Shown here piece after piece: positions 3,943-25,149 of a stretch of DNA of 64,000 bases. Both the position numbers and the translations under genes were made by a program. The stretch lies in the NCBI GenBank assembly GCA_965237415.1, contig CBDEFM010000001.1:544001-608000 (forward strand), written 5' to 3'. The notes below the pieces were generated by a model. That model was given only the letters and a program-made list of their open reading frames with translations. It made no database searches and was not told where the DNA came from. Source of the stretch: Alphaproteobacteria bacterium (lineage in GTDB: Bacteria > Pseudomonadota > Alphaproteobacteria > UBA828). Positions within the stretch are counted from its first letter, which is position 1; every line of letters starts with the position of its first letter.

Positions 3943-4119
3943 CTTCGCCACTCCTTCGCCAGCGGCGGTCTCTTGGTCGGTGAAGGCTTGCCCATGATTG
4001 GCAAGCTGCTGGGCCACACCCAGGTCCAAACCACGGCCCGCTACGCCCACCTCGCAAACGATCCCGTCAAGTCAGCCGCAAACCGGATCGCAAGCCGAAT
4101 CGCCGAGGTGGCAGGGTGA
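3943..4119 (+). pseudogene. Tyrosine integrase C-terminal fragment 1
   Basis: Reads LRHSFASGGLLVGEGLPMIGKLLGHTQVQTTARYAHLANDPVKSAANRIASRIAEVAG*; no N-terminal part upstream. Confidence 0.85.
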
Positions 4120-4366
4120 GGCCGGAAAGGGACAGTTTCCAATAAGGGGCGATTTCCCCATGGCCCGCCTCGGGTCGTAACGCCGGCTTGCTCCTCGCTG
4201 CAATCCTGGCGCGCGTCCACCACAGCTCCCGCGACCGGGTCTGCCAGCCTATCCCGGAGCGCTTCTTGCGGCGGATCTCACCGTGCACATGCTACCTTCG
4301 TGCAACGCTGCTACTCGACATCTTCATGCCCCATGTGGAATTCCTTCGACATTGGAGACGCGCCCA

Positions 4367-5653
4367 GTGACAAGAATTCGAGAAGACCTCAGCCAATGGG
4401 CGCTACATTTCATTCACGACCACAATCCGGATACCGACCCCACAGACGAAGAGATCGACTACGAATTCTACGGTGGCCTTCCCTACCACGAGAGCAAGGA
4501 AGTCAACGACCGTTTCGACGCGTGGAGAATCAGCGATCAATACTACCCTATCGATCCCGACCCAGATGCTTTGCAGGTGTTGCTGAAGATCATTACGGAT
4601 GGCCACATAAGGGCCAGTTGGGCTTTCAGAAACAATCGACCCACAGTTTATGGCCCCCGGGCCGCGGTGTGCTTTACGGAAATGCCGCTCTACGCACTTC
4701 TTGACTATGTGAACCAAAGGGAAAAAGACGCCGTCGCGCCCTATGCAATCGGACTCAGCAAACAAGAGCTGTTCCGCGCCGGTGCGCGACCCGTCATTTA
4801 TGGGCTGACCGGACATCACGTCGAGGAGAGGGGCGGCTCGTTATCCCTCAAGCCGTGGCCAAGAAAACTCGCGTCGTCATGTGGCCTCGCGGAATCCGAA
4901 CAGTACCGGTATGTCGCAATGTCCTCCGATCCCACGCGGCCGATCGACTGGTCGCATGAGCGAGAATGGCGTTGGGCTGATCACCAGGATCGATGCTCCT
5001 GCCCCGGAGTGCCCATCTGGCTGTCCGACGAGCCCGCCTGGTTCACGCGGGTGTTCATTGTCGTACCGAATTCAGGAGCCATTGAGCGCGTGCTGAACAG
5101 GCTGCAAGAGCTTCATGACGCAGGATCAAATGATGTCGGCCACGCGTTCTCGAGAAGGATGCTCCGTTCGACCGCCGTGGTCGCGCTGGATCGCCTGACA
5201 CATGGAATGGGAGACATGCGCGACAAACGCCTGCGTCTCGATGACATCTCCCCGTCGTACATCCGCATCTTCAAGCGCCAGCGGGCAACCCGCGATATGT
5301 TGAAGAAGGCAGGTGATGTGCTGAACGAGGCGAAAATTGCGGCCAACCACGCGGCCGCCGCCCGTCACAAGTCGGCCCCAAGAACGAAGGACGGCCGTCA
5401 CATCGCGGATATCGCCGGCTGGGCTCATCTTGTAGTACACAGCGGTCAAACTCCCTTGGTCTCCGCGCTCTTGGAGTTAAAGGCGATCTATTCTGTACCT
5501 GGAGAAGGATACTACTTCCGCGACATCGGTGGCCTTGGTTGGAAAGACGAGCAAGCCCTCTCGCTAGCTGAGGCCGCTGTACATGCAGCCATGGAAATCT
5601 TCAGAAAACACTTTCCGGAGGCGTCGTTCAGCATGACGACGAGATGGGACTAA
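4367..5653 (+). CDS. DUF4427/AbiGi-like protein, probable ADP-ribosyltransferase fold
   Basis: REDLSQWALHF, ASWAFRNNRPTVYG, AVCFTEMP, GARPVIYGL, EQYRYV, IDWSHEREWRW; GTG start at 4367 after GGAG. Confidence 0.7.
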   Translation: MTRIREDLSQWALHFIHDHNPDTDPTDEEIDYEFYGGLPYHESKEVNDRFDAWRISDQYYPIDPDPDALQVLLKIITDGHIRASWAFRNNRPTVYGPRAAVCFTEMPLYALLDYVNQREKDAVAPYAIGLSKQELFRAGARPVIYGLTGHHVEERGGSLSLKPWPRKLASSCGLAESEQYRYVAMSSDPTRPIDWSHEREWRWADHQDRCSCPGVPIWLSDEPAWFTRVFIVVPNSGAIERVLNRLQELHDAGSNDVGHAFSRRMLRSTAVVALDRLTHGMGDMRDKRLRLDDISPSYIRIFKRQRATRDMLKKAGDVLNEAKIAANHAAAARHKSAPRTKDGRHIADIAGWAHLVVHSGQTPLVSALLELKAIYSVPGEGYYFRDIGGLGWKDEQALSLAEAAVHAAMEIFRKHFPEASFSMTTRWD

Positions 5654-5920
5654 TGCTCTTGTGAGACCTGAAACGACTCGTAGCGTGCTAGCGAACGAGT
5701 TTACGCTCAGGTGGACTTCCTCGCCGGTCTTAATCCTTTGGACACTGCCTCATGGCTTGTAGTCTACCGGCACCCAGCGCAACCTGAACCTCTTGGCTCG
5801 GCCAATGTAGCGACGACGCGACCGCTCAGCACGTCCTCCAGTGGCTCCTAACTGGTCGACGCATGCCCCAAGACTATTAACGCATCGATTGGCGATCTCA
5901 TGAACCAAGCCTAGAATTGG

Positions 5921-6742
5921 CTAAAGGGGAATCGGCGGCAGCGGGTCCATGCCGCACTCCAACGCCGCATTTTCTGCCGCTTCGAAGAGCTCCTTACCAT
6001 CCTTTGCCAAGCCGATCAACGCCTTGATCCCGGCAAGAAATCCGCGGAGGCGACCAAATTGTGGTTGTGGTTTGGACGCCTCGGCCCTCGCTTCCTCGAT
6101 CAACGGCGCCAGTTGATCATGCTCACGAAATTTCTCATGCAGGGACTCGAGCGCACTGCCGAGTGCTTCCAATCCCCTCGTGTCGATGTTCTGGGTCACT
6201 TTGGCTATAGAATGGTCGCCCTGTTGGAAAGCGCCCACCGGTCCGGAGAAAGTGTAGTGTTCGATATGCGTGCTCCCACCGCCCTGGGAAACAATCATCG
6301 CAGTATTGCTTGAAAACAACTCTATTTCTGTTCCAACAATCTCCCGCGATCTCAAGAATGCAGCTTCCGCATCAGCTACGATATCGCTCTCGATGCTACC
6401 GCCTTTCAACCTGTTTCTTCGAAGGGAACCAAGGTAACTGTCCGCCAATGGCTTCATCACCTCGTCGAACACCTCTCTTAGTTGTTCAACCAAGATGTCA
6501 CCGGGATTTACCCCAATGGTTACGGCAATGTGGTGGAGTTGCGACCATGCTTCTCTGCAAATATCATCGTACGTTTCTTCGTATACCTTCCTAACATTCA
6601 GAGCGGTTTGGCTGGAATGCAGCATGCCATGTCTGTTGGCTTCGCTGCGCACTCGCGTTGCTGCCAGGGCAGCGTCGTTCCTGCGCTTTTCCAGTATCAA
6701 TCCCATTCGCCTAACGAACAGGCTACAAATTTTCTGGTTCAT
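5921..6742 (-). CDS. Hypothetical protein (helical, with a G/Q-rich linker motif)
   Basis: 273-aa ORF with lower GC and normal amino-acid composition; no family recognised. Confidence 0.6.
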   Translation of the reverse strand: MNQKICSLFVRRMGLILEKRRNDAALAATRVRSEANRHGMLHSSQTALNVRKVYEETYDDICREAWSQLHHIAVTIGVNPGDILVEQLREVFDEVMKPLADSYLGSLRRNRLKGGSIESDIVADAEAAFLRSREIVGTEIELFSSNTAMIVSQGGGSTHIEHYTFSGPVGAFQQGDHSIAKVTQNIDTRGLEALGSALESLHEKFREHDQLAPLIEEARAEASKPQPQFGRLRGFLAGIKALIGLAKDGKELFEAAENAALECGMDPLPPIPL

Positions 6743-7070
6743 GGCTCGCTCTAATGGTGACAGGAGAATTGGACGTCACACGAAGTCTGTACTGGCGTCT
6801 ACGCGTAGCGCAACAAGACAAGCATACATATTCCTGTGGTCCATCGCACCCGTCCGGTGAGGACAACTTGTCCCGAGAACCGCTTCTGCGAATCCGGCGG
6901 GTTCGAAGACACAGTCTGAGGGGGGAGCCGGTCTACGCGGCCAGGGTCGAGATCCCGATCAGCGTGGAACACTCAAGCCGACGCATTCCTCCACCGACAA
7001 CTGCCTCCGAGCAGCTTGGGCTGATCCGCTCATCCCATGCCGCGACCATCTCTCGCGTCTACTCCACCGC

Positions 7071-7277
7071 GACCTTCGGCACAGCTTTGCCTCCAGGGCT
7101 CTCGCCCTCGGCGAAAGCCTGCCGATGATCGGAAAGCTCCTCGGCCACCGTCGGATCCAAACGACCGCCCGCTACGCCCACCTTGCACGGGACTCGGTGA
7201 AGACCGCCGCCGAGAGGATTGCGGACAGCCGCGCGACCGACATGGACAGACACCCGGCTCCTTCCTCCACCGCGTGA
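7071..7277 (+). pseudogene. Tyrosine integrase C-terminal fragment 2
   Basis: DLRHSFASRALALGESLPMIGKLLGHRRIQTTARYAHLARDSVKTAAERIADS...*. Confidence 0.85.
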
Positions 7278-7532
7278 TCAGCCGCCCAGCTTGGCCAACA
7301 AGTGAAATACGGCTAGGACTCGAAAAATGTACTGAGCCGTGCCTGAAGCGCCTCATCGTCGAAAGCCGGCGGTACACGACAACGGATCGGTCGACACGTT
7401 CCAATGAGCCGACCGGAGTCGGGCATAGGAGCAGTGGTGGCCTGGCACGCAGGCGATTCGGTCGCGCTATCTGTTCGTCCCTTGGGCGCCCGTGCGCCGA
7501 GTTGCCCCAGAATCGAGATCGGAGGACTACCT

Positions 7533-8960
7533 ATGGTTCAACCTTATTCGCCATTCGACAAGGACATCGATGATTTGCGGCCTGAGGATTTGGAGGTTCT
7601 GAAAAGGGTGAATGAAGGCTGGTACGTCGAATATAAGCGTGAGCTTGTAAGCGCTTCTGCCTTGGCTAAAGCTATTTCTGCCTTTGCAAACAGCTATGGT
7701 GGCTGGCTCTTTCTTGGAGTACAGGAAAAAACCAAAGGTTGTTCTGTCGCGGGCCGATTTCCGGGAATTCCTGATGATTCAATCGATATCTCACTGCAAA
7801 AACTACGCCAGTCGTCTACTGATATCCTCAACCCTACACCCTTCTTTCGGACTAAGGTGTTGCGGGGCCCCTGTCCAACGATAAATCTCTCAGAAAACGC
7901 CTCAGTTCTGGCGGTTGAAATCCCGCAAAGCCACACGGCTCCTCATGTACATAAGGACGGGCGAATCTACAGGCGTGTGGCGGATGGTTCAGAACCCAAA
8001 CATGAAACTGATCGTTTTGTTCTAGATCAACTCTGGCGGCGCGCTGACCCTGTGCGAAATTTCACGCGCGAATGGATTAAGAGAGATCCAGAGTTCTCCA
8101 AGTCCGAAGAACATACACCATACCTTCGGTTGCTGCTTTGCGTTGATCCATGGCAACAACGCGATCCATGGCTCAAGGCGCCTGTATCAGAAATCACAGA
8201 GATATTCAGGGGCAACGACGCTAGCATTTCGTCAATTTCTTTCGACACGGTGTATTCTACATCTGAAGGTATCATTGCTCGACAGTTAATCGGCAATAAC
8301 CCACACAATATGGGTCTAACATGGAAACTGCGCCGAGATCTGGCATGCGACGTTGTTGTGCCTCTTCCATTTTATGATCTTGGCGACCTCGATAATTTAT
8401 TTGAAGAGCAAAACGGTTACATGGATACGGAACGATTTATGAGAATATTGGCGAGTCAAGGGACGGGGTACACGCAGCCTCGGATTGTTGACCTAAATTT
8501 CGTAATGCAAATTTTGATTGGTGTTGCCTCGAAATATGTACGTTTGCTGGAACTGGCAAGTGGGCCACGCATATTTTTTTGCAAAGCAAGATTACTAAAT
8601 AGTTGGAGAATCATCCCTTTCATGGATGTCGCTTCCATACAAGAGAAGTACGAAACGTATGGTCTACCTTTGATTATGGATAGTACAATTACCGTACCGA
8701 GTGGGCTCGACCCGGATTCATTTGCTCAAATCGATGAACTGGATTCTTCCAAGCCTGATGGTCGGAGTATGGACGTCAGCATTTTACAAGGTATATTGAT
8801 ATTCATTCGTGTCGCAGAGGCGTTTGGCGTGCCTATTCTTCTTGGAGATGAGTTCAACGCTGACGACGCATACTTGTATCAAGACATTTATGACGCTGGA
8901 AGCCGAGCAAAAATAGTACAGGAAAACCAAAACAGAACGAGAAATACCCCTAGGTCTTAA
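7533..8960 (+). CDS. Schlafen/AlbA_2-domain protein with uncharacterised C-terminal domain
   Basis: EGWYVEYKRE, ISAFANSYGGWLFLGVQE, APHVHKDGRIYRR; ATG at 7533 after GGAGGA; low GC. Confidence 0.8.
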   Translation: MVQPYSPFDKDIDDLRPEDLEVLKRVNEGWYVEYKRELVSASALAKAISAFANSYGGWLFLGVQEKTKGCSVAGRFPGIPDDSIDISLQKLRQSSTDILNPTPFFRTKVLRGPCPTINLSENASVLAVEIPQSHTAPHVHKDGRIYRRVADGSEPKHETDRFVLDQLWRRADPVRNFTREWIKRDPEFSKSEEHTPYLRLLLCVDPWQQRDPWLKAPVSEITEIFRGNDASISSISFDTVYSTSEGIIARQLIGNNPHNMGLTWKLRRDLACDVVVPLPFYDLGDLDNLFEEQNGYMDTERFMRILASQGTGYTQPRIVDLNFVMQILIGVASKYVRLLELASGPRIFFCKARLLNSWRIIPFMDVASIQEKYETYGLPLIMDSTITVPSGLDPDSFAQIDELDSSKPDGRSMDVSILQGILIFIRVAEAFGVPILLGDEFNADDAYLYQDIYDAGSRAKIVQENQNRTRNTPRS

Positions 8961-9023
8961 AGCTCATGGGCGTGCATTGACTAGCTGTACAGAGATACTG
9001 TTCAGCTGACAGTGCCGTCCGGG

Positions 9024-9406
9024 TATCGGGAGCGCAAGCGCTAGATGTTTCTCACCGACGAGGAGTTTCGCCGACTCGGTCGGGTGCTGAACGAAGCCGC
9101 GGTCGTGAGCGGCGTGTTGGTGCACGCCGCGGCGGCGATCCGGTTGTTCATGCTCTCCGGGTGCCGGAAGAGTGTGATCCTGACCTCGCGCTGGGAGGAT
9201 GTGGACCTAGGGTACAGCGACAGTGCATTTAGGGCACAAGGTGACATCCAGATTTACGACGTGTCGCCTTGGCTTCATCGCGTTCCCGGAGGGTGATCAC
9301 GGGCCACAAGTCGGGCACGCACATTACGAACCTGGACAAACCGTGGCACATTGTCCGGACCCGCACCGGTCTGAAGGAAGTGCGCATTCATGACCTCACG
9401 CATTCT
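9024..9406 (+). pseudogene. Tyrosine integrase catalytic-domain fragment ending at HDLxHS
   Basis: FLTDEEFRRLG...AAIRLFMLSGCRKSVILTSRWEDVDL, then after an internal deletion/frameshift NLDKPWHIVRTRTGLKEVRIHDLTHS. Confidence 0.8.
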
Positions 9407-9561
9407 TGTGCAACATGCTCTTACAGCCTGGCCGCGTGAGCCCCTCTAACTTACCGTAATAACTACATTTTCTTCACTTCCTGATTTTCCTTCCAGTCCG
9501 TCTTCCAGATTCCGTAATCATAACGACACCAGATTCAAGTTAACGTTTGGCGTGACATGTC
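9407..9561. repeat. Conserved non-coding segment after the integrase break, copy A
   Basis: TGTGCA at the junction, then TTCCGTAATCATA (9510) and GACATGTC (9554), 44 bp apart as in copy B at 21292/21336. Confidence 0.7.
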
Positions 9562-9611
9562 CATACCCCACGTATGATTCGCCGATTTTCGCGATTCTCA
9601 CGCCGACAGAA

Positions 9612-9637
9612 GTAAGGGTCCGGTCGGACCGGTATGG
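9612..9637 (+). mobile_element. Solo IS66-type terminal inverted repeat
   Basis: GTAAGGGTCCGGTCGGACCGGTATGG, 23/26 identical to the end at 21395. Confidence 0.75.
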
Positions 9638-9698
9638 GGGTCCGCGAAGCCACTATGACAATGCGTAGGATCGGCATCGCCGCGCTCGCGCCGGCGTT

Positions 9699-10226: not shown

Positions 10227-11382
10227 CACCATACCTCCGTCGCGGCGGCTCGGCTGGCGGCCATTCTCGCCACGCTTTGCCAATGCCGCCAGCGCTGCGT
10301 TATCAGCACGATGAACCTTACGCTTCCCGAGGCCCTCACCCGGACCGGCGGGTGATCCGCTGCGACCAGCCGCGTAGCCTGCGGCCATGCCGGCGCCTCT
10401 CGGGCTACATCGCCCGCCGCTGCTACCACCCGGCCTTCGTCCCCCGGCTCGCGGCTGAAGACCTGGGGATATTCCGGGCGCCGGAACACGGCCCACGCGA
10501 CACGGCGCCGGGTGGCAATCCTCGTTTATGCTTGTTACGTCGAAATCGGCGATCGGCGCCGCGGTCGGCACGCCCAACCCGGCGGAATTCCTCGGTTGAT
10601 CGCTCTATTCGCAGAAACCGGCCAGGGTGTCCGTCTTCAATCCGCAAGCGGATTAAATCAAACCCACGTCCCAGCTTGACCTCGTTTGGGTTTACTGCGC
10701 ACGGGTTACCCCGTTCACGCATTCGCCATGCGTTTTTCTAAGCGCTTCTGCAAATTGCCTTGGGGCAATGTATCTGATTGCGGGGGCTCGCAACCCCCGA
10801 GACCGACATTCGATCGAAGTCCCGGTCTGATCCCGCGTAACCTTCTGAATTATCGCGGGTTCTTGTGCAACGGCATCATCTCATTTGCCGGGTAAGTCTG
10901 ATCTTACCGCGCTCTCCTGTGCCGATCCAGTCCCGCAGACACTCCGTCCCGCAGACACTCCGCCAGGCGACTCCTGCGCACATTTCTACATCCGCTTCTC
11001 ATCGATGTCCTCGCTCCTCGCGCGCGCATGCATGTACGGCAGACGGAAGCAACAAGAGCTCACGAAGGTCGGCCATCATGGCCCGCAACCGGCCGCGCCG
11101 GCCCGCCGCCGGGGACTTCATTGCAGCGCCTCGGCGTAGACGCTGAGCGGTCGCCGTTCGACCTCTACGGTCACCGGCAAGCGCCGCCGTTTGGGTTCCG
11201 GCGCCCAGATAGCCCGCCGCGCGAACCTCGTCGAACAGCCGCATCGCGGATCTTCCAGACAACCACTCGATCCCACAGCGAGCTTGGCTGACCGGCAGCG
11301 AAAGTGAGCTGACTATCGTGTTCGATGCAGTCCTTGTTCTCGTCCCGAAACGATTCTGCCCAGGAGCCAGCTATTGTGACCG

Positions 11383-11421
11383 TTGACAGCCGTAATTTAC
11401 TGTTGTAACTTACAGCTGTCA
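11383..11421 (+). promoter_or_regulatory. Sigma70-like promoter overlapped by a 38-bp imperfect palindrome (operator)
   Basis: TTGACA (11383) - 17 bp - TAACTT (11406); TGACAGCCGTAA (11384) and TTACAGCTGTCA (11410) are inverted repeats, 11/12. Confidence 0.7.
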
Positions 11422-11441
11422 TGATTAGGAAGCACCCGGCT

Positions 11442-13166
11442 ATGCCTCTCACAATCCCGGAGCTAGCTCGTGCCGTGCGCAAGACCGAGAACTATGTACG
11501 GCAGCATGTGTTCCGCAAGCACCTGGTTGTGCAGAAGGATGGACGCCACGTTACCGTCACGCATGATGAGGCACTGCGTTGGGCACGTGAGCGTCAGCTC
11601 CCCTTTGAACCCCCAGCGAAAGCATGGGAACCAACCCAGACGGCAAGGAGCCGGGCCGCTCGGATGAGCGTACTGACCCTGCATCACCCGGAAACGAAGC
11701 CGTGCAACCTCTTGACGGTCGTACGCCACCGTCGCCAGGACGCACTCGGTCCCTGGTCGAACGAGACGAGCAAGACCTGGACGAGCGAGGCTCTCGGACA
11801 TGGGCTGCGGCTGTCTTCACTCGATGCCCCTCTGGAACACTGCCGAGCACTGGTTGACGGCATTCTCGAATCTGCAACGCTCGAGATCGACGATGACCAA
11901 ATTCACTATGCCGTAGAACGAACCCCCCGGCATCGCCGCGCCTTTCGCGATGAGAGAGGGCTCGTCGACGCCTCCATGACCAGCCCGTTCTCACGCTACA
12001 GCGCGGAAGTTGTCGACTACTGGAGCCGTTCAGCCGAACCTCGCCGGCACTGGCTGAACCTGCTCGATTCCCTTCCCGGACCCACGCCCTTCCCCCTCTC
12101 TCGTCTGGGCGTTCCGCTTGACCGCCTCTCCGACCGCGTTGGAAACATCGTGATCGCCGGGGCCGAGGACGAAGTCGCCTGCGATCTGGCAGTGGGAAAC
12201 AGCCGGACGCTTAGACTCCATGTCGATGCCGAACCACTTCTACCAGGCGCCTATCGCGCCATGGTCTGGGCCAGTTACGCCGGAGACGAGGTGCTTCGAA
12301 AAGAAGTCACCGTTACACAGCGCCTGACGACGATTCAGCTCGAATCCGATGTTGATCACATTGGCTTCGCCATCTTCCGGACCGCTGACGGACAATGCCT
12401 CGACCTCATGGAGGCGCCCCTGTGGTTGCGCATCGGTGGCCGAATAAGGGTCAATTCCGCTTCGACCCTGCGGTTCAGTGATCGCCAAGGCCGCGTGTAC
12501 CACGAAGTGAATCCGCCTGGCCCCTTCACAGAGATCGACGTTTGTCTTGACGACGAACGCGGCGAACTTGACAAGGAAATCAGGCGACGATGGCTTGACC
12601 GGCGGGTTCGTGAACGAGAGGCTGCCGCGCGCAGGGAACGCAACTTGGCGCGCTTCCTGCCCCCTAACCTTGACGACGCGGTCGGCTACCTCGTCGAGCT
12701 TCTGCGCCACGACGCAGACCAAAAGACACCGATCTATCTCGCCGACCCCTATTTCGAGACGCAATTGCCGAGCGACGCCCGGAGACACCAGGACCTCAGA
12801 AAGATCTACCTCGACATATTCGCAGCCACCGCTGGCACCCCGCTGCGGATACTGTGCGCGAAGAAGAAGCCGGCGCAAGGCGAGCCACCGCCATGGTGGT
12901 CCGCCTGTCCCGAACAGATAACGGCCCATGTCCGTGTCCGCTCATTCCGCAGCCAAGACGGCAGAACAGACGGCTTTCACGATCGCTTCCTGATTACGCC
13001 CCGGCGCGAGTTCATCATCAGCCACTCGTTCAACGGCTGGCACAATCACGGCGTTACCTTCGTAAGCCTTCCTTACAATGTGTACCGCGCCGAAGCGGAG
13101 CAGCTCTGGTCGATGGACGTCGGATCCCCGACTGCCGACCTCCTGGTCTCCGAGATCGGACAATGA
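11442..13166 (+). CDS. N-terminal HTH + C-terminal PLD-like nuclease protein (VPA1262-like)
   Basis: LTIPELARAVRKTENYVRQHV (excisionase/MerR-like HTH); C-terminal IYLADPYF and FHDRFLI...ISHSFNG (HKD-variant motif). Start could be 11421. Confidence 0.65.
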   Translation: MPLTIPELARAVRKTENYVRQHVFRKHLVVQKDGRHVTVTHDEALRWARERQLPFEPPAKAWEPTQTARSRAARMSVLTLHHPETKPCNLLTVVRHRRQDALGPWSNETSKTWTSEALGHGLRLSSLDAPLEHCRALVDGILESATLEIDDDQIHYAVERTPRHRRAFRDERGLVDASMTSPFSRYSAEVVDYWSRSAEPRRHWLNLLDSLPGPTPFPLSRLGVPLDRLSDRVGNIVIAGAEDEVACDLAVGNSRTLRLHVDAEPLLPGAYRAMVWASYAGDEVLRKEVTVTQRLTTIQLESDVDHIGFAIFRTADGQCLDLMEAPLWLRIGGRIRVNSASTLRFSDRQGRVYHEVNPPGPFTEIDVCLDDERGELDKEIRRRWLDRRVREREAAARRERNLARFLPPNLDDAVGYLVELLRHDADQKTPIYLADPYFETQLPSDARRHQDLRKIYLDIFAATAGTPLRILCAKKKPAQGEPPPWWSACPEQITAHVRVRSFRSQDGRTDGFHDRFLITPRREFIISHSFNGWHNHGVTFVSLPYNVYRAEAEQLWSMDVGSPTADLLVSEIGQ

Positions 13167-15883: not shown

Positions 15884-16801
15884 TCAACAGAACGGTTCCT
15901 CCAGAAGCTCAGATTGGCGCAATTCAAAAGCATATCCAAACTTTTCTATCGCGCCGGATACAACGTCGGGGAACCACAATGGTGCAAAGGGAGATATGGT
16001 CACATCGTTGATAAGAGCCATTAGGTCACAGGTCAGTGTTTTTCCTTTCACCGGATTTTCATATTCGTTTTGCAGTGTTACCCTAACCTCGCATTCATGG
16101 CTGAGCGATCGGCGTTTACAGAAAATGCGTTCATTTTGGATCGTCGCAAAAGAGTGTCGGAAATCCAAGTAATGGACCCGACCAACAACTGCACTGGCAT
16201 CTCGTGCGGTCGCCTCCCAAAGCTGGCCTACGGTCGTTCGGATCGCAACTCCCGGCGTTGGCGAAGGACAGTAGAGCCGCCAAAGAGCTTCAGACTCTAT
16301 GTCATTAGCATGCCAACAGCTGACTAGCAAACTCCGTGCGCGCGATGAACCAGCTTTAAGTTGCTCAAGCAGCTTATTGGCCTCGCTCTCGATCCTCTCT
16401 TCTGACCAGTCCGGCCGCGAGAACCCTGGAGGTGGCGTCACTACTATTTTACGGAAATAGCCGAGATAGAATTCATCCCAGTCTGGCTCTCGGCGTGCTA
16501 GTCCAATCGCACCCTCGAATTGATCTTCGAGTTCATGAACGCTCGGGAAATGAAGCCCTCCCTGCTGTAACATTGCGACAAACTTGGCGAATTCCATATA
16601 ACGCCAAACCGACTGATCGTCCTCGACTGATAAGTCTAATGTACCGGTCCAATATACCGGAGTTGCAAGCTCCCCGAGCTGATGGGCGCAGCAGGCACCG
16701 ACCAACAATGACCTGCCACCGGCCCCATATCCCGCAAAAGCAGGACGTCCGTTGGGGATCTTATGGTTGCAGGAAACGCACCGATTCCACTGTTGAGTCA
16801 T
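15884..16801 (-). CDS. DUF2971-like protein with N-terminal Cys cluster
   Basis: WRYMEFAKF, EDQFEG, VSCWH...ESEALWRLY, GVAIRTT, KRRSLSHECEVR; N-terminal CVSC...ACC. Confidence 0.7.
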   Translation of the reverse strand: MTQQWNRCVSCNHKIPNGRPAFAGYGAGGRSLLVGACCAHQLGELATPVYWTGTLDLSVEDDQSVWRYMEFAKFVAMLQQGGLHFPSVHELEDQFEGAIGLARREPDWDEFYLGYFRKIVVTPPPGFSRPDWSEERIESEANKLLEQLKAGSSRARSLLVSCWHANDIESEALWRLYCPSPTPGVAIRTTVGQLWEATARDASAVVGRVHYLDFRHSFATIQNERIFCKRRSLSHECEVRVTLQNEYENPVKGKTLTCDLMALINDVTISPFAPLWFPDVVSGAIEKFGYAFELRQSELLEEPFC

Positions 16802-16931
16802 CACACGGCGCAACCCGTGAGTGATATGACCAGTGGATTTCAGGCGGTCGAAGACTGCCTGATCTTCTGGCTGAATATCTATCTCAGAAATTGTTCAACC
16901 TCCTACAGCCGCTTGTATGACCAAATCCGCC

Positions 16932-17258: not shown

Positions 17259-17275
17259 GATCTCCAGCATCGCAC

Positions 17276-18307
17276 TCAATCGCCTTGGTCTTCCCGCGCA
17301 TTTGCCCTGGCCTCGATGCCGGCGCAGTACTCCATCAGGCGTTCGAAGGGCTCGTCGATGTCGAGCAGCATGCCGTCGGCCAGCATTCTGCCGTAGTCGT
17401 CGGCCAGGACATCGAGGGCCGGGCCTGACGGGATCAGCTGTAGTCCTCCTCCGACCGCAATCTGGTAGTCGATTTCGTTGCCGGCAGCGTCCTTCTCCCG
17501 GAAGAAGATCGCCTTGTGGCGTGCGACCGAATGCGCGACCGCACGGTCGGCGAGAGCGCGGGCCGCAACGCCGGCATCGTCGAGCCTCGCCAGGTCGTGC
17601 CAGTGGCGGGACAGGCGCTCGCCGCGTTTCCTCTCCTGCCGGCAGAAGACGTGGATGGCGGTGGCCTTCTCCCAGAATGTCCGCTCGGCCAGCATGACGG
17701 ACGGCCGCGCCCGCGGAAACAGAAGGTCTGGCAGGAACGGGGCCGCGTCGCATTCGACGGGCCGGATTGCCCGGGGCTCGCCCGTCGAGCGCGCCCCGAA
17801 CTCCACCGTGACTTCCGGGCGCACGAAGGCGTAGTCGTCGAACAGCGGTTCATAGACGATGCGCAGGCGCTCCGAGTCCGCCTTTAGCCGCGGCTCGAAT
17901 CCGTCACGCCGAAGGTGCGCTTCGACCGACGGCGCGGCTTCGTCGAGGACCCACGCATCGAGACGGGCCCGGATCGCCTTGGTCCAGCGGCGCTCCTGGC
18001 TGCGCGTGGGCGGCAGCGCCTCGGCGCCGGCGTCTGCGACCAGGTCGGGGGCGAAGGCCCGGATGTCATAGGTGATGTCGACGTCTTCGGAGAAGCGGCG
18101 GATCGCGCGGTACGCCTTCGACAGCGAGGTTCCGCCCTTGAAGGCGAGGTCCTTGCCGAAGGGCGCCTCGAACAGGGCGTGGAGCGTTGCGACGACCCAG
18201 ATGTCCTTCTCGAGCAGGAACGCACGGTGCGGGCTGCCGGCTTCGGCAACGCGCAGGGCGTCGCGTCGGTCGCCAGCGGAGAGCGACCGATACGGTGTCT
18301 CAGCCAT
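17276..18307 (-). CDS. abiEii: AbiEii/AbiGii nucleotidyltransferase toxin (type IV TA)
   Basis: LLEKDIWV, FKGGTSLSKAY, RRFSEDVD, VEFGARS, ERTFWEK, SRHWHDL. Confidence 0.9.
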   Translation of the reverse strand: MAETPYRSLSAGDRRDALRVAEAGSPHRAFLLEKDIWVVATLHALFEAPFGKDLAFKGGTSLSKAYRAIRRFSEDVDITYDIRAFAPDLVADAGAEALPPTRSQERRWTKAIRARLDAWVLDEAAPSVEAHLRRDGFEPRLKADSERLRIVYEPLFDDYAFVRPEVTVEFGARSTGEPRAIRPVECDAAPFLPDLLFPRARPSVMLAERTFWEKATAIHVFCRQERKRGERLSRHWHDLARLDDAGVAARALADRAVAHSVARHKAIFFREKDAAGNEIDYQIAVGGGLQLIPSGPALDVLADDYGRMLADGMLLDIDEPFERLMEYCAGIEARANAREDQGD

Positions 18308-18896
18308 GGGCGAGGCGCGCGCTGACCGATTCAGCCATCCAGATGGGCATGATCGCCCGCGCGGCGGCGAGCTCGTCGACTTCGGCGCCGGAGAGCCCGG
18401 GCAGGAGCGCCTCGAGACCCTCCTCGACCTCATGCGGACCGAGCCAGGCGAGGGCGCGAATGACCTCGCCCGCCTTGCGGCGCGGCGCCGCCAGTTGCCA
18501 GCGGGGGGCGTGGCGCAGTTCGACCGTGACGCGCCCGAATTGCAGCCGCCGGCTGCGGCCCGAAGTGAGATAGACCTCGCGGACGGGGTTCTGGGCGGTC
18601 AGGCCCAGCCGGTTGGCCGCGGAGCCGCCGCAGGGAACGATGATCTCGCCCCAGAGCTCGGAGAGCGCTTCGAGCGCCTTGCCGATGCGCGGCGGACACG
18701 GACCGAAGCGGGTCTCGACGGGATGCATGTAGACACCCTGGCAGATGCGCATCAGCCGCCCGGCACGGGCGAGGCGCGCCAGCGCCTGGTCCACCGCCGC
18801 GCGCTTGCCCAGGTGAAGGAGGGCGGCTGGACAGATCGGCGTAGCCTCGGGCAGGCCCGAGGCGTGCTCCATGATGCGTTTCGGTAGGCTGGACAT
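18300..18896 (-). CDS. abiEi: AbiEi-like antitoxin (DUF6088-like)
   Basis: AAVDQALARLARAGRLMRICQGVY, GGSAANRLGLTAQNP, YLTSGRSR; overlaps the abiEii start. Confidence 0.85.
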   Translation of the reverse strand: MSSLPKRIMEHASGLPEATPICPAALLHLGKRAAVDQALARLARAGRLMRICQGVYMHPVETRFGPCPPRIGKALEALSELWGEIIVPCGGSAANRLGLTAQNPVREVYLTSGRSRRLQFGRVTVELRHAPRWQLAAPRRKAGEVIRALAWLGPHEVEEGLEALLPGLSGAEVDELAAARAIMPIWMAESVSARLAHG

Positions 18897-19109
18897 GGTC
18901 CTGTCCCGCAAATTATGTCAGAAATATAGGTGTGAAAGTGTCAGTCTGCAACGCCGGTTCGAGGTGAGGTTCTCCGAGATGAACACCGGCTACGGAGAGC
19001 CGGTCCCGCCACGGGCCCGGCGGGAGTTCCTGCGGCTGATCGACTGTGGGTACTGACCCTCTCGAATTGCCCGCCAACACGATCGCGACAGCGTGGTCCG
19101 GCGGCAAAT

Positions 19110-19427
19110 TCACGTAATCGACGTCAGACCGTTCTTCTCGACCAGTGTCAGCAGTTTCAGTGAGGCGCCGCGCGGGCGCTTCTCGCCGCACTCCCACTGG
19201 CTCACCAGACCCGTGGTCACGTTCAGGTAGCGGGCGAACACCGCTTGGCTCGCATGCTCCCGCAGCCGGATCTCACGGATCCGCTCCGGCGCCATGTCCT
19301 CGATCGGAGTCAGACACATCTCGCCGAAGACCTTCATGGTCCGCTTCGACATCACGCCCGCCTCCGTCATGCCGAGCGCCGCCTCATACGCGGCCGCCAG
19401 GGCCTCACTTCTGTATTGCTTCGGCAT
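19110..19427 (-). CDS. XRE-family HTH antitoxin (HigA-like), toxin missing
   Basis: IREIRLREHASQAVFARYLNVTTGLVSQWECGEKRPRGASLKLL. Confidence 0.85.
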   Translation of the reverse strand: MPKQYRSEALAAAYEAALGMTEAGVMSKRTMKVFGEMCLTPIEDMAPERIREIRLREHASQAVFARYLNVTTGLVSQWECGEKRPRGASLKLLTLVEKNGLTSIT

Positions 19428-19579: not shown

Positions 19580-19705
19580 CAGTCCATTCGTACGCGCTAT
19601 CCAGGTCGCGTTCGATGCTGTCGCCGATGTGCGCCGCGAACCCCTCCACGGGATCGCGGGCGAGATGGGCGCAGCGAGCGGTGGTTTGGGCCTGGCGTGG
19701 TCCGG
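19580..19705 (-). pseudogene. Tyrosine integrase extreme C-terminal fragment (inverted)
   Basis: Minus strand reads RQAQTTARCAHLARDPVEGFAAHIGDSIERDL, matching QTTARYAHLARD of the other fragments. Confidence 0.7.
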
Positions 19706-19839: not shown

Positions 19840-20778
19840 ATGTCGGGCACCGCCGATCCTCTCGCCAACGATACCCGGATGCGTCTCCGAGCCTTGGAGC
19901 ACGTCCAAAGGCTCACCGAGATCCACGGACCGTTGACGGCCAAACTGCTGAGCGCGGGCTTCGACTCCGACGGTGCGCGCATCCCCCTCGTCAACCCGCA
20001 GCGCGGCATCTTCAAACCGCGCCAGATGCGTTTCCTCCTCTCGATCAAGACCGTCGTGCCGAAACGCGGCGGCAAGGTGTGGTACGACGACCAGCGTGAA
20101 GCCCATCGGCAGATCTACCAGGGCAAGGAAACTGTCGATTACGCCTTCATGGGCACAAACCCGGAAGCCGCCGACAACCAATGGCTGCGCGAGGCCCACG
20201 AACACCAGGTTCCCGTCATCTATTTTCTCGGCGTCACACCGGGCAGATATCAGGCTTTGGTCCCGACCTTTATTTCCGGATGGGATCCGTCCTCGCTCAA
20301 AGCGACCATTTCGTTCGGCCTGCCCGAACGCGACGACCTCTCGATACCGCCGCAGGCGGCGGAGCGCCGCTACGCCCTGCGGGTCGTGAAACAGCGTCTC
20401 CATCAGGATTCGTTCCGCGAAGCGGTCATCACCGCCTATAGGGGTCGCTGCGCCCTGTCGGGACTGCGTGAGCATCGCCTGCTCGATGCGGCGCACATCA
20501 TTTCTGACAAGGACGAACTGCTGGGCCAGCCGGTCGTGCCGAACGGACTCCCGCTATCGAAGATCCACCACGCCGCGTTCGACGCCGATCTGATCGGCAT
20601 CGATCCGGATTACGGCGTGCACGTTTCCGAGCGTCTTCTTGAGCAGCGCGATGGTCCGATGCTGGACGCCCTGAAACAGCTCCAAGGTGGCGCACTGCAT
20701 CTACCCGTTCGGATTGGCGACCGCCCAGACCGCGAGCGCCTGGCGAGGCGCTTCGACCGCTTCAAGGCTGCGGCCTGA
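19840..20778 (+). CDS. HNH endonuclease, putative modification-dependent restriction enzyme
   Basis: RLHQDSFREAVITAYRGRCALSG...LDAAHI...NGLPLSKIHHAAFD; N-terminal GIFKP...YDD...DNQWLREA (SRA/PUA-like, inferred). Confidence 0.85.
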   Translation: MSGTADPLANDTRMRLRALEHVQRLTEIHGPLTAKLLSAGFDSDGARIPLVNPQRGIFKPRQMRFLLSIKTVVPKRGGKVWYDDQREAHRQIYQGKETVDYAFMGTNPEAADNQWLREAHEHQVPVIYFLGVTPGRYQALVPTFISGWDPSSLKATISFGLPERDDLSIPPQAAERRYALRVVKQRLHQDSFREAVITAYRGRCALSGLREHRLLDAAHIISDKDELLGQPVVPNGLPLSKIHHAAFDADLIGIDPDYGVHVSERLLEQRDGPMLDALKQLQGGALHLPVRIGDRPDRERLARRFDRFKAAA

Positions 20779-21209: not shown

Positions 21210-21233
21210 CGGTTACACGATCTTCGCCACTCT
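21210..21233 (+). pseudogene. Short integrase fragment ending at RLHDLRHS
   Basis: CGG TTA CAC GAT CTT CGC CAC TCT followed by TGTGCA, the same junction as at 9407. Confidence 0.65.
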
Positions 21234-21394
21234 TGTGCACCATATTCCATTAACTTACTATTCTTATTGTGTTTTTCATCTTTCCATTTCGTTCCGTAAT
21301 CATATAGTCACCGGATTCGATCTATATCGTGACGCGACATGTCGCGTCATGCACCGCCATCTCCCGCTGGTCTCGAAATTGCCCCAAAATACTC
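21234..21394. repeat. Conserved non-coding segment after the integrase break, copy B, with a 20-bp palindrome
   Basis: TGTGCA..TAACTTAC..TTCCGTAATCATA (21292); perfect palindrome TGACGCGACATGTCGCGTCA at 21330-21349. Confidence 0.7.
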
Positions 21395-21431
21395 GTAAAG
21401 GTTCGGTCGGGCCGGTATGGGTCGGTGGATT

Positions 21432-22313
21432 TTACCGATTGAGGGTTCGCTTCCAATCTCTTCGCAGGGGCCGAAGCCAGATGTCCTTCCTGGGCTTGTC
21501 GTACAGCTTGTCCCGGTCGTATCGGCCGCGCCCCTTGGTCGCTCCGACATGGATCCAGCCGGAGGCTCTGTAGACGGCTCCGGTGTAGCGGGGCGTCTCG
21601 ACGAAAGTCTCGATGAGCACGGGCGTTGTGTTGTAGCGCTCGGTCCAGTCCTCGGGCAGGCGCCGGCGGATGATGGCGAGGATGTGCGAGCCCAGGTTGG
21701 GGATATTGATCCAGGGCAGGATCAGGAACCGCGGGTTATCGACCACGAGGGGGAGGTTCTTCTCGCGCAGTTGCGGCGTCCACCCGATGAAGGTGTCGCG
21801 CGGGGCGAGCTTCCAGGCGGCGGTGGAGAAGCCGAGCATGGCGACGGGCCAGCCGTTGCGGTCGTGGGCGGCGTAGCGCATCTGGGCGCCGACCAGGGTC
21901 CTGTAGCCGAGATAGTGGTAGCGGGCGATGAACTCGTTCCACAGCTTGCCCTCCCGGGTGCCGCGCACGACGGGCCGCAGGGTGAGCGGACGGACCTCGT
22001 CGAGGGTTGTCGGCGTCGGGAACAGCGGCGGTTGGGTGTGCGGTCCGAAGATGATGGGCTTGGGCCGGTTCTGCCGTCCCTGCTTCGGCGGCAGAACGAT
22101 GAGGCCGTCGCGGTGCATATCGAGCATGGTGACCCTGGCCATCATGTCCTTGAGGCCGCCGTCGGGCTTGAACCAGCCGATGCGCCGGCAGAACGCCTTC
22201 GACAGGCGATGGCGGTTCAGCGCCGGAGGGTCGGCGATCAGGGCGCGCAGCAGCGCCATCTCTTCGGCGGTGAAGTCGCGGCCGTAATAGCGGCACTCGA
22301 CGGCGCCGGTCAT
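21432..22313 (-). CDS. DUF4338 (DruA-like) protein inside the IS
   Basis: LWNEFIARYHYLGY, GAQMRY, LGFSTAAWKLAPRDTFIGW, NPRFLILPW, LIETFVE, YRASGW; ATGA overlap with the transposase stop. Confidence 0.85.
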   Translation of the reverse strand: MTGAVECRYYGRDFTAEEMALLRALIADPPALNRHRLSKAFCRRIGWFKPDGGLKDMMARVTMLDMHRDGLIVLPPKQGRQNRPKPIIFGPHTQPPLFPTPTTLDEVRPLTLRPVVRGTREGKLWNEFIARYHYLGYRTLVGAQMRYAAHDRNGWPVAMLGFSTAAWKLAPRDTFIGWTPQLREKNLPLVVDNPRFLILPWINIPNLGSHILAIIRRRLPEDWTERYNTTPVLIETFVETPRYTGAVYRASGWIHVGATKGRGRYDRDKLYDKPRKDIWLRPLRRDWKRTLNR

Positions 22314-24871
22314 CCCGGCGCCGTCAGTGCGAGCCTGTGTTCCTCGTTCATCGACCATGGCAGCCAAGGCGACAGGTCGTCCGGCGGTCGACGGCCATTC
22401 TTCGCGCATTCTTCCAGCCACGCCTCAAGCCAGCGCAGGACATCGATGCCGTTCAACGCGAGGGTGCCCACCACCGAGTACATCATGGCCGTGAACCGGG
22501 CGCCGGTCTCGCTGTCGGAGCCGAACGACAGGCGTCTTCCGATCGCTGGCCCTCTGAGCATCCTTTCGGCGAGATTGTTGTCCATCGGCGTCAGCGGGCG
22601 GTCGACGAAGACGCTCAGCCCCTCGCGATGGTTGATGAGCGAGCGCAGGGCCTTGCCCTCACGCGCCTCGTCGGGCAGGCCGGCGAGCTCCCGTTCGGCC
22701 TGCGCGAACAGGCCGTCGAGCGTCTCCTTCAGCGCGCCCTGTGCCGTGTCGAACGCCGGCGTCTGGCGCTCAAGCCCGGCGCCGTAATGCTCCAGCCGCG
22801 CCTCGTTCAGGCGGTAGATCGACGCGATCCGCTCGATCCATCCCCGGCACCATTCCGTCAGGCTGACCTGGCCGGCCGCGCACTCGATAAAATCGCGCCG
22901 TTGATGAGACCAGCAGAACGCAAGGGTCACCAGCCCCCCGCGAAGGCGAGCGAGCCGCTTGTAGGCGCTATAGCGGTCGCAGACGATGACCGTGTGGAGG
23001 AGGGCCGCCGCGAACAGCTTCTCCGCCGCTTCGGCGCTGCGCGAAGGGTCGATATGGAAGTAGACGGCATCGCTGCTGACCGAGGTCCACAGCCAGGCGC
23101 GGCTCGACCGGTCTTCCCCGCGAAGCTCTTGCACGCGCCAGCTGGTTTCGTCGGCATGGCGCAGCGCCGCCTTGTCCTGGTGCGCGAGGATCGCCCCGGC
23201 GACTGGCTCGAACAGTGGCACGAAGCGGAGCATGCTGTCGGCGAGCGTGCCGGGAGAGATCGGCAGCCCCCGGTCGGACAGCCACGCGGCGACCCGCTTG
23301 AGCGGGCGGTAGCAGGCATAGCGTTCGAACAGGACGCAGGCCCACACGCTGATTCCGTAGGGCGTGTTGCGGAACAACCGCGGCACCGGGGGCGCCGACA
23401 CTTCGATCGGCGACGACGCGCAGCCGCAGGCCCGGCGCCAGCGCGGACGGCGGATCACACGCTTGTGGGCCTTGACGTCGATCTCGACGAGCGGGGAGAT
23501 ATCGGCGCCGATCGCCGCATAGGGCTTGCCGCAACAGGAGCACACACGCGCCTCCTTCGGCGGGTTGATCTCCTCCTCGCGCTCCTCGAGCCCGGGCCGT
23601 CGGGTACGGCCATGGCCTGGGGCGCCGCGCTGCTGGCCGCGCGGGCGTCCGGAACGCGGCGTCTCCTGCTTCTCGCTCTTTCGGCCGAACAGCGCCTTCG
23701 ACAGCACCGCCCCGGTCGCGCGAAGCCTGGCAAGCTGCGCTTCCAGCGTCTGGATCCGATTCCACGACGCCTTCGCGCCCTTGCGCAGCCGGGCGTTCTC
23801 CCTGGACAGCGATTTGATCGTGGCCTTCTGGCGCCGCGATCTCCGCAATGCCCTGCGCAGGTCGGCATCCGCAATGGACAGCGACTTCGACAGCGTCTTC
23901 CTGACCGCTCGAAGCCCGGCAAGCTCGGACTCAAGCGCCTTTCTGATTGCACGAAGTTTGGCAGGCTGAACCTCCAGCGACGCTTGCCGCCTCTCCAACT
24001 TCCGCACGGTCCTGCGCAGCCGGGCGTTCTCCTTGCCGAACGACGTGATCGTGGCCTTCTGGCGCCGAGATCTCCTCAGGGCTGTACGAAGTTGAGCAGC
24101 CTCGTCGCACGACAACTTTGACAGCGTCGCCCCGGTCGCGCGAAGCTTGGTAAGCCGCGCCTTCAATTTGTCCTTTTGGGCCTCGGACACGTTCAGAGCA
24201 ACGCGCAGCCGGTAGCCCTCGCCGGACAAGGATTTCACCGCGTCCTTCTGGTCGCGCAGTCGCCTCAGTTCCGCAACAAGACGAACGATCTCGCGGTTCT
24301 GCGATCCGATCGTCTCCTTGTGGGTTTCCGCGCCCTGCAAATCCTTGCGCAACTCACGGACCTCGTACTCCAGCAACCCGGCCTTCGCCGCCCGGGCCTG
24401 CGCCACCTTCAGAGCCTTGCGCAGCTGGTTGACCTCCGTGAGCGACACAACCGGGGGCTGCCTGGCGGCCTCGATGCGGGATTCCGAAGGCCGCTGCTCA
24501 AACCGCGTCACTTCCGCCTTCGATGATTGCGCGGCCTTCACCGCGCGACGCAGTTCCTTCACCTCGACGCGGGACGCCTCCAGCTTGCCCCGACAGCTGT
24601 CGAGCTGCCACTTGAAAGAACCCGCCCGGGAACGAGCATCCACATCTGACCGGCGCAGCTCTTCACAGCGTGCTTCGGCCGCGTCCGCCCGCGCCCGTTC
24701 CCGCTCCGCACGGGCGTGCTGCCGCTCGTACAGCGAACGCCAGTCGCGCGGCTGCTGCTCCAGCACGGACGCAGGGAACGACCAACCTGCATCGTCACCA
24801 TCGGCCTGCGTCAGCGCTGCGCCAATATCTTCGTCGAGAACCGCCATGCGCTCAACGATAGCCCATGGCAA
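22310..24871 (-). CDS. IS66 DDE transposase (TnpC-like) with extended, internally repeated coiled-coil N-terminus
   Basis: LFGRKSEK, CSCCG zinc finger, HADETSW, CDRYSAY, CWSHQRRDF, DNNLAERMLR. Confidence 0.9.
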   Translation of the reverse strand: MPWAIVERMAVLDEDIGAALTQADGDDAGWSFPASVLEQQPRDWRSLYERQHARAERERARADAAEARCEELRRSDVDARSRAGSFKWQLDSCRGKLEASRVEVKELRRAVKAAQSSKAEVTRFEQRPSESRIEAARQPPVVSLTEVNQLRKALKVAQARAAKAGLLEYEVRELRKDLQGAETHKETIGSQNREIVRLVAELRRLRDQKDAVKSLSGEGYRLRVALNVSEAQKDKLKARLTKLRATGATLSKLSCDEAAQLRTALRRSRRQKATITSFGKENARLRRTVRKLERRQASLEVQPAKLRAIRKALESELAGLRAVRKTLSKSLSIADADLRRALRRSRRQKATIKSLSRENARLRKGAKASWNRIQTLEAQLARLRATGAVLSKALFGRKSEKQETPRSGRPRGQQRGAPGHGRTRRPGLEEREEEINPPKEARVCSCCGKPYAAIGADISPLVEIDVKAHKRVIRRPRWRRACGCASSPIEVSAPPVPRLFRNTPYGISVWACVLFERYACYRPLKRVAAWLSDRGLPISPGTLADSMLRFVPLFEPVAGAILAHQDKAALRHADETSWRVQELRGEDRSSRAWLWTSVSSDAVYFHIDPSRSAEAAEKLFAAALLHTVIVCDRYSAYKRLARLRGGLVTLAFCWSHQRRDFIECAAGQVSLTEWCRGWIERIASIYRLNEARLEHYGAGLERQTPAFDTAQGALKETLDGLFAQAERELAGLPDEAREGKALRSLINHREGLSVFVDRPLTPMDNNLAERMLRGPAIGRRLSFGSDSETGARFTAMMYSVVGTLALNGIDVLRWLEAWLEECAKNGRRPPDDLSPWLPWSMNEEHRLALTAPG

Positions 24872-24965
24872 AACGCGTTACCAGCCCAATTTTAGAGTTC
24901 ATCCCGACATGGATGATGAGCCCAACGTCGGCCTATACCGGCCCGACCGAACCTTTACAAATACT

Positions 24966-25130
24966 CGGCATTCCATCGCGTTTCGTGCGCTGGCGCTCGG
25001 CGAGATCCTGCCGGTGATCGGCAAGCTGCCGGGCCACAGCGATATCGAGACGACGGCCCACTACGCCCATCTGGCGCAGGACTGGATTCATCAGACCGCA
25101 GAGCGCATCGCCGATAGCATTGCGCGCGGG
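24966..25130 (+). pseudogene. Tyrosine integrase C-terminal fragment starting at RHS
   Basis: RHSIAFRALALGEILPVIGKLPGHSDIETTAHYAHLAQDWIHQTAERIADSIA; the Arg codon overlaps the last base of the TSD. Confidence 0.8.
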
Positions 25131-25149
25131 CCAAGACCGTCGCCGGTCT

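Follow-up and report, generated by a model that had tools for sequence, protein, structure and literature searches.

The window analyzed here is a stretch of 64,000 nt from the genome of an Alphaproteobacteria bacterium (GTDB lineage UBA828; assembly GCA_965237415.1, contig CBDEFM010000001.1, positions 544,001 to 608,000), in which genes of one tyrosine integrase family are broken at the codons of the catalytic motif HDLRHS, the H-x-x-R box, beside cargo that includes defense genes. These codons very probably constitute the crossover core of a tyrosine recombinase attachment (att) site. In this genome and in other species of the genus, the core is followed either by the C-terminal part of an integrase gene (intC) or by TGTGC, which opens a conserved AT-rich arm. 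The junctions fall into distinct classes, are precise, and recur across the genus. The best reading of them, at a probability of about 0.5, is that units led by the arm, or in degenerate form by intC, use integrase genes as bacterial attachment sites (attB).

The genome that holds the window (G000) has a GC content of about 68%, and its GC profile shows a lower-GC island at window positions 3000 to 29000. The relatives were 20 other genomes of the genus, one genome per species. Integrase fragments were located by direct reading and with a profile derived from 19 full-length family members (HDLRHS at positions 332 to 337), and the contexts of the junctions were compared by blastn. Coordinates prefixed C1 or C2 refer to G000 unless another genome is named.

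Break points of the integrase genes and the conserved arm

An earlier note on this DNA listed three C-terminal pieces starting at (DL)RHS, and these were confirmed by direct reading and by the profile at 3943, 7068 and 24966 (intC1, intC2 and intC3 in Table 1). It also listed two N-terminal (intN) pieces ending at HDL(R/T)HS-TGTGCA. The one at 9406 is such a piece, decayed and reduced to about 128 codons, whereas the one at 21233 is an eight-codon stub with no N-terminal half. The inverted piece is present on the minus strand at 19596 to 19697, but the motif is not its break point. The statement that there is no intact copy holds for the window but not for the adjacent DNA, where the intact tandem genes intA (C1:541217-542419) and intB (C1:542432-543601) lie 0.4 to 2.8 kb upstream of window base 1. 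A further C-terminal fragment, intC0 (profile start 324), follows 48 nt past the intB stop codon. IntA and IntB contain the Pfam domains Arm-DNA-bind_3, Phage_int_SAM_3 and Phage_integrase, that is, the N-terminal arm-binding domain and the catalytic domain by which lambda/P4-like integrases are recognized. Family integrases stand mostly in a-b pairs, and the halves at 9406 and 24966 are both b-type and both decayed. Substitutions at conserved residues were seen in intC0 and intC3; intC2 looks undamaged.

Tabulation of the break points on the profile bore out the claim that they are clustered beyond what random decay would give. Among the 16 C-terminal fragments in G000, which has 55 integrase-domain matches, 9 start at profile positions 323 to 334 (binomial P = 2e-10, for a 12-position window picked post hoc). 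Five family N-terminal fragments in G000 end at positions 340 to 345, corresponding to the motif and the first codons of the arm. In five relatives, the start falls no more than 10 residues from the motif in 9 to 10 of about 31 C-terminal fragments (P = 2e-4). The recurrence of exact junctions across the genus likewise supports the proposal that the core lies within the H-x-x-R codons and that the breaks are site specific.

The fragment intC1 differs from its closest copy (C2:3603325-3603503) at 32 of 180 nt, with 25 synonymous and 4 nonsynonymous codon changes. Three of the 4 nonsynonymous changes fall in core codons, and the 54 codons downstream hold 25 synonymous changes and 1 nonsynonymous change. 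This concentration of nonsynonymous changes in the core indicates that the switch point is at the core. The substitution pattern suggests that intC1 and its copy are either recent cuts from working genes or fragments still under selection.

The arm that begins with TGTGC is 165 to 215 bp long and has conserved blocks, CCGTAA-type direct repeats and a palindrome. A six-frame motif scan of G000 detected seven HDLRH(S/T)-type sites followed by TGTGC (the seventh being HNLRHS), six of which share the arm, and an arm profile added three to five further arms. The exact 23-nt core-TGTGC pattern occurs at 5 sites in G000 and at 9 sites in 7 of the 20 other genus genomes, and all of these sites, the nine of the relatives included, continue into homologous arms with conserved blocks. 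The reversed pattern, used as a control, gave no match in any of the 21 genomes. An internal arm block was found in 14 stretches among 185,579 species genomes, nearly all of them from uncultured Alphaproteobacteria. In 12 of these 14, an HDLRH(S/T) core abuts TGTGC 77 to 123 nt upstream of the block (at least 20 of 23 positions matched), indicating that the arm essentially never occurs without the core.

At the third base of the S/T codon, all 15 arm junctions have T, compared with none of 13 junctions between unrelated sequence (X) and intC and 1 of 25 unbroken family genes, which indicates that part of the core comes with the arm. All 15 arms also have a CAC...GTG dyad across the junction. 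In an attP (the attachment site of the mobile element) of lambda/P4-like type, arm-type repeats flank a short core held in common with attB; here the conserved arm lies on one side only, and a core of 12 to 30 nt is shared. Of about 17 arm junctions, about 5 have very short cores of 5 to 13 codons, a share far above what truncating an N-part of 340 codons at random would produce. The cargo downstream of the arm varies between sites. CCGTAAT is enriched in the two arms of the window, whose combined 366 bp contain 3 of its 9 copies. A solo arm of 161 to 170 bp inside an integrase gene occurs in two species, as arm B of the window (Table 1) and in the relative G003 (locus L029).

Origin of the junctions

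All four possible junction classes are present. The class intN-core/intC comprises 20 intact integrases, and the class intN-core/arm is represented at 9406. Ten X-core/intC junctions were found in G000, in which only 9 to 30 nt at the right edge of X are integrase-like, and X-core/arm junctions lie at window position 21216, C1:377292 and C1:375155. Conservative recombination between two site types with a common core would be expected to produce this set. In the favored explanation, the HDLRH(S/T) codons of this lambda/P4-like family would coincide with an att crossover core that exists in two settings, inside every family integrase gene (intN-core/intC) and at the head of the conserved arm (X-core/arm). 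Conservative recombination between the two settings would yield the hybrids intN-core/arm and X-core/intC. The arm would be the accessory arm of a mobile partner and thus resemble an attP arm. Units led by the arm (arm, cargo and short core) or, when degenerate, by intC would integrate into the integrase genes of resident elements, splitting these genes and stacking cargo beside them. The window would then be an array of at least six core-delimited units downstream of the intact intA-intB pair, scrambled later by core-by-core deletions, IS66 insertions and decay. On this reading, the mobile partner, the catalyzing integrase and a present or past activity of the system are inferred from the junctions.

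This attB explanation is favored because of the likeness of the arm to an attP arm and because the enzymes, having an Arm-DNA-binding domain, are expected to need such arms. It is favored also because the arm is joined to N-parts of several integrase subtypes, and because arm-led DNA is flanked by the two halves at 9406 and 24966, which are b-type and decayed to the same degree. The order intN-core/arm ... core/intC seen in these halves is found again in a 4.4-kb unit of the relative G005 (L027). Three species (L062, upstream of the window, L063 and L064) have a pair with a trailing type-c intC, a structure that could result from a deletion running from the core-like site after gene b to the core of the adjacent c gene; such a core-like sequence is present 73 nt past the b stop codon in an a-b-c trio.

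Several observations weigh against it. None of the units was met in more than one context, and most lack an integrase gene of their own. The intC0-intC1-intC2 array has no matching intN-core/arm junctions on its left, which calls for extra deletions. Some of the X partners are gene interiors (an amidase-like open reading frame [ORF] and an IS66 copy), suggesting promiscuous recombination at secondary sites. Synonymous sites of the core vary freely in intact integrase genes, indicating that these genes are not under selection as DNA sites. About 21 of the approximately 31 C-terminal fragments in the five relatives start away from the motif, which indicates that ordinary decay is also at work. 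The arm palindrome is modestly supported, with 59% of cells paired and a covariation score that was reached in 6 of 500 shuffles; RNAalifold on the arms gave 7 pairs, none with a compensatory (both-sides) change. Finally, no circle, empty site or restored junction was seen among metagenome contigs, the search being confined to assembled contigs.

These contigs came from four metagenome runs. They show positions 4761 to 9429 as contiguous, with no clean excision or circle joint among them. One joint of low depth links 10376 to 7085, in intC2-like sequence, at the S/F codon boundary (shorter side 30 and 63 nt); as the metagenomes contain many diverged contigs, it may derive from another strain or organism. 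Window positions 10362 to 10378 are a degenerate core-like sequence.

The segment from 7068 to 9406 bears on a different assignment of the sites. In suicidal integration of the SSV type, the intact integrase gene of an element would carry attP and be split on a core/arm target, with intC on the left and intN on the right, and excision would rebuild it. The intC-Schlafen-intN layout proposed earlier fits in its order, since the segment reads intC-Schlafen-intN-core/arm. A unit of about 16 kb in G004 reads intC ... a (C-terminal part, profile 235 to 391)-bN-core/arm. The constant attachment of arms to cores and the history of purifying selection borne by the coding sequence of the fragments are also consistent with this model, and core/arm sites that lack an integrase N-part could be empty targets. 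However, the intN piece lacks about 200 N-terminal codons and is frameshifted, yet the supposed other half, intC2, looks undamaged. The integrases have an arm-binding domain, but the only conserved arm is on the supposed target side. The opposite order, intN-core/arm ... core/intC, also occurs, as do intC-cargo-intC arrays without intN pieces. A 2021 review (PMC8371274) describes integrases with the target site inside their own gene as exclusive to archaea, which amounts to a low prior and not to a refutation. Suicidal integration is considered unlikely.

Downstream of intB, the C-terminal fragments form an array in direct order, intC0-PDC-S68, intC1-two ORFs and intC2-Schlafen. Comparable arrays are the layout int, intC, intC in G016 and intC/AAA+S8 protease/intC in G003. 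An intact integrase followed by such units could be read as an integron-like platform, in which the core acts like attI and cassettes (a replacement intC, cargo and a short core) restore the integrase and push the old C-terminus downstream, much as the 3' end of a tRNA gene is displaced by an island. The ratio of 25 synonymous to 1 nonsynonymous difference in intC1 downstream of the core agrees with this. Against it, the collinearity of intB with its orthologue in G004 (77% identity) extends to the stop codon and gives no sign of a swapped C-terminus, and intC0 and intC3 are substituted at conserved residues. The array in G003 has no intact integrase on its left, and the arms are left unexplained. 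The integrases score 41 to 54 bits with the NCBIfam integron-integrase models, for which the cut-off is 265. In addition, the first "cassette" would have no cargo in three species. An integron-like platform is regarded as quite unlikely.

A combined proposal would make the catalytic H-x-x-R codons an attachment site for a bacterial counterpart of suicidal integration together with integron-like accretion. Integrase genes would be split or re-completed with exchangeable C-termini, defense genes would be captured and stockpiled beside integrases, and rival elements would be disarmed through insertions in their integrase genes. As a whole, this proposal is possible but doubtful.

The conventional target of the integrase family is probably tRNA-Met, whose 3' half is adjoined by the b gene of one pair, by one c gene and by one further single integrase. 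The junctions might then have arisen with no dedicated system at all, through tRNA-Met island integrases hitting look-alike secondary sites, including the motif codons of paralogues, followed by decay. The adjacency of b-type and c-type integrases to tRNA-Met, the unrelated gene interiors among the X partners, the 55 integrase-domain matches in the genome, the age and divergence of most junctions, and the relatives' fragments broken elsewhere are all in line with this. It does not explain the conserved arm on the core in 12 of 14 occurrences, the invariant T or the dyad at the junction. Moreover, the core, its left flank and the arm starts resemble tRNA genes, tRNA-Met included, no better than shuffled sequences do, and this explanation is very unlikely.

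Two specific tRNA origins were tried, of which one was rejected and the other found no support. The first 90 nt of 15 arm junctions (core plus arm start), aligned locally with all 52 tRNA genes as possible tRNA 3' ends, did no better than shuffles, and this origin was rejected. A core and left flank that mimic the tRNA-Met att block were not supported: the 39 junction-left sequences had scores of 18 or less, the mean for shuffles being 14 +/- 2, and the scores of intact genes were the same. An 8- to 9-mer is common to the core/left flank and the tRNA-Met att block. ARAGORN detected no tRNA gene in the window.

The far end of the arm was considered as well. Four or five arms carry IS66-type ends at their far end, the spot that a group II intron occupies in G005, so that the distal arm end looks like an insertion hot spot. 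The arm itself could be the end of a transposon, miniature inverted-repeat transposable element (MITE) or intron with a fixed insertion point in integrase genes. In favor of this are the precision of the left junction, the solo arms of 161 to 170 bp inside an integrase gene in two species, and the IS66 and group II intron insertions at the far end of the arm. The arm, however, has no terminal inverted repeat and no linked transposase, and Rfam found no match in the window. The core repeat on the intC side is imperfect and variable (9 to 30 nt), with no fixed target duplication, and the cargo after the arm is variable. This origin is extremely improbable.

Cargo, insertion sequences and neighboring genes

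The features of the window are listed in Table 1. The earlier claim that the integrase pieces bracket defense cargo stands for PDC-S68, Schlafen/AlbA_2, AbiEii/AbiEi and the HNH nuclease, but 21395 to 24958 is an IS66 element. The same pattern is seen in G003 (L066, C1:668000-680000 of that genome), where an AAA ATPase and an S8 subtilase lie at 4102 to 8222 between two integrase C-terminal fragments starting at the core. A Cap4-nuclease/AAA/SEC-C protein follows this pair on the opposite strand. Relatives of the Schlafen cargo were found in none of 48 other genomes of the order; three relatives, 39 to 57% identical, were found in metagenome-assembled genomes labeled with other taxa.

Table 1. 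Features of the window, in positions of the 64,000-nt stretch
Feature	Position	Strand	Profile positions or match
Unit 1 cargo, 1253-aa RecD-like helicase	95-3856	+	Pfam AAA_30/UvrD_C_2; PADLOC PDC-S68 (candidate defense family), E=0, full length
intC1, integrase C-terminal fragment starting N-L-R-H-S, unrelated sequence before it (X-coreL/intC junction)	3943-4119	+	profile 333-388
Unit 2 cargo, ORF of 456 aa	4283-5653	+	no Pfam, PADLOC or NCBIfam match
Unit 2 cargo, ORF of 273 aa	5921-6742	-	no Pfam, PADLOC or NCBIfam match
intC2, integrase C-terminal fragment starting (H)R-D-L-R-H-S	7068-7277	+	profile 326-392
Unit 3 cargo, Schlafen/AlbA_2 protein in a low-GC (45%) segment	7404-8960	+	Pfam SLFN_AlbA_2, 7e-15
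intN remnant, ~128 frameshifted codons, ending H-D-L-T-H-S, then TGTGCA	9024-9406	+	profile 209-262 and 297-340
Arm A, AT-rich, starting TGTGCA, two direct CCGTAAT repeats	9407-9611 (205 nt)	+	
Terminal inverted repeat of IS66 type, distal end of arm A	9612-9638	+	89% identical to 21395-21421
Cargo after arm A, large ORF of unknown family	11421-13166		
Cargo after arm A, large ORF of unknown family	12854-15307		
Cargo after arm A, PDC-S31-like	15884-16813	-	
Cargo after arm A, AbiEii	17276-18433	-	
Cargo after arm A, AbiEi-like/DUF6088	18300-18911	-	
Cargo after arm A, MqsA-like HTH	19110-19427	-	
Inverted integrase C-terminal scrap, break not at core	19596-19697	-	profile 359-392
Cargo after arm A, HNH nuclease	19840-20778	+	
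Short core, eight integrase-like codons R-L-H-D-L-R-H-S, then TGTGCA (X-coreL/arm junction)	21210-21233	+	no profile match upstream
Arm B, 161 nt; after removal of the insertion sequence (IS) it abuts the R-H-S codons of intC3 ("solo arm" within integrase gene)	21234-21394	+	
IS66-family insertion sequence, 3564 bp, 35-nt inverted repeats	21395-24958	-	DDE_Tnp_IS66, 5e-54
intC3, integrase C-terminal fragment starting R-H-S; decayed, conserved positions substituted	24966-25124	+	profile 334-387

The IS66 element shows the features of its family, including an 8-bp target duplication (21387-21394 = 24959-24966), and is no part of the cargo of the system. Three full-length copies that are 100% identical occur in G000 (in the window, at C2:2111795-2115358 and at C2:3069744-3073307), and a fourth, interrupted copy lies at C1:671691-675842. 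The identity of the copies suggests recent activity. At the far end of arm A, no likeness to the IS66 element was seen beyond the repeat at 9612 to 9638, either by eye or in the context comparison. The 3' end of intC3 is cut off by a C-terminal fragment of an IS110-family transposase (Transposase_20; window 25120-25635). Beyond it, on the minus strand at 26070 to 28544, a gene in a segment of 44 to 51% GC encodes a P-loop NTPase of 824 aa that matches NACHT/AAA_22 and MmeI_N weakly and has no PADLOC match; it is possibly a further defense gene.

Upstream of the window, a sequence resembling a tRNA 3' fragment in reverse orientation was recognized by eye at about 990 to 1040 of L062 (C1:534990-535040), where ARAGORN calls no tRNA. 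This scrap probably marks the left boundary of the island, 9 kb upstream of the window; it is separated from intA by two ORFs of unknown family and a gene recognized by eye as DnaB-like. No near-identical DNA was found in the plasmids of PLSDB, in which integrase homologues are at most 45% identical.

Two of the core/arm sites of G000 (C1:377292 and C1:375155) flank a mercury-resistance mini-operon on the minus strand (C1:374911-377292), which encodes, as named by eye, MerR, MerT-like and MerP-like proteins and a small Cys-rich protein. It directly follows an intact 415-aa integrase with the Pfam domains Arm-DNA-bind_3 and Phage_integrase, whose own motif is HGLRN, 22 nt from core/arm. This integrase was considered as a dedicated "hunter" and rejected as not general, a core being found downstream at only 2 of 30 homologous loci in the genus, with a third case in G004.

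A 576-bp inverted duplication, 99.8% identical (C2:2261077-2261652 and C2:2288954-2289529), starts no more than 5 nt from an intact integrase's H codon, and its other copy abuts the interior of an IS66-like gene; a simple inversion does not account for it. Two trios of tyrosine recombinases of other subfamilies, at C1:346560-348932 and C2:3066380-3068783, are unrelated to the core/arm junctions, and we take them to resemble recombinase-in-trio elements.

Comparison with known systems

No tyrosine recombinase element described as targeting integrase genes was found in the full-text literature, subscription journals and supplementary files being outside the search. Should the core be an active att site, integrase genes would themselves be landing pads. 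This would provide a simple rule for the growth of defense islands beside integrases and would let one mobile element inactivate another or hijack it. A bacterial tyrosine integrase whose own catalytic codons serve as recombination site would then also be the first of its kind, this property being given as archaea-exclusive in the 2021 review. The core-plus-arm site could serve as a recombination tool. If the junctions are only fossil accidents at secondary sites, they still yield a rule for annotation, in that integrase fragments starting or ending at HDLRHS would be old recombination junctions and not products of random decay.

As in the archaeal type I (suicidal) integrases of SSV1 and pTN3, the core lies inside the integrase ORF, and N- and C-terminal parts flank other DNA. 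In contrast to those systems, the host here is bacterial, the lambda/P4-like enzymes have an Arm-DNA-binding domain, and the core coincides with the catalytic H-x-x-R box. In place of the tRNA gene that serves as target for SSV, the partner is a conserved AT-rich arm. In SSV1 and pTN3, the integrase gene is the attP side, whereas here the core in the ORF could be attP or attB.

The units also resemble the tandem genomic islands in tRNA and transfer-messenger RNA (tmRNA) genes (the Islander logic; see PMC4383910), with direct repeats of a target-gene segment at the ends of units and several displaced 3' fragments in direct order after an intact copy. They differ in that the target is an integrase gene, the repeated block is 5' of the crossover, and most units lack an integrase of their own.

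With integrons they share a layout in which one or more integrase genes precede cargo units arrayed between recombination sites; here the cargo consists largely of defense and toxin-antitoxin genes. Unlike in integrons, the integrases are not IntI, as the model scores given above indicate, and the site is inside a coding sequence instead of next to the gene. The units are 2 to 12 kb long and carry several genes in both orientations, in place of the single-gene cassettes and the conserved fold of attC, to which the modestly supported arm palindrome does not correspond.

Mobile elements that target the recombination machinery of other elements include the "res hunters" Tn5053/Tn402, the IS1111-attC elements and the attC-specific group II introns. 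Integrative and mobilizable elements (IMEs) nested in genes that belong to integrative and conjugative elements (ICEs), together with a streptococcal serine-integrase IME with its own recombination site within its integrase gene, are described in a further study (PMC5357655). Like Tn5053/Tn402, IS1111-attC and the nested IMEs, the units would, on the attB reading, home to a sequence found only in other mobile elements. Unlike in all of these, the target would be the catalytic-motif codons of tyrosine integrase genes.

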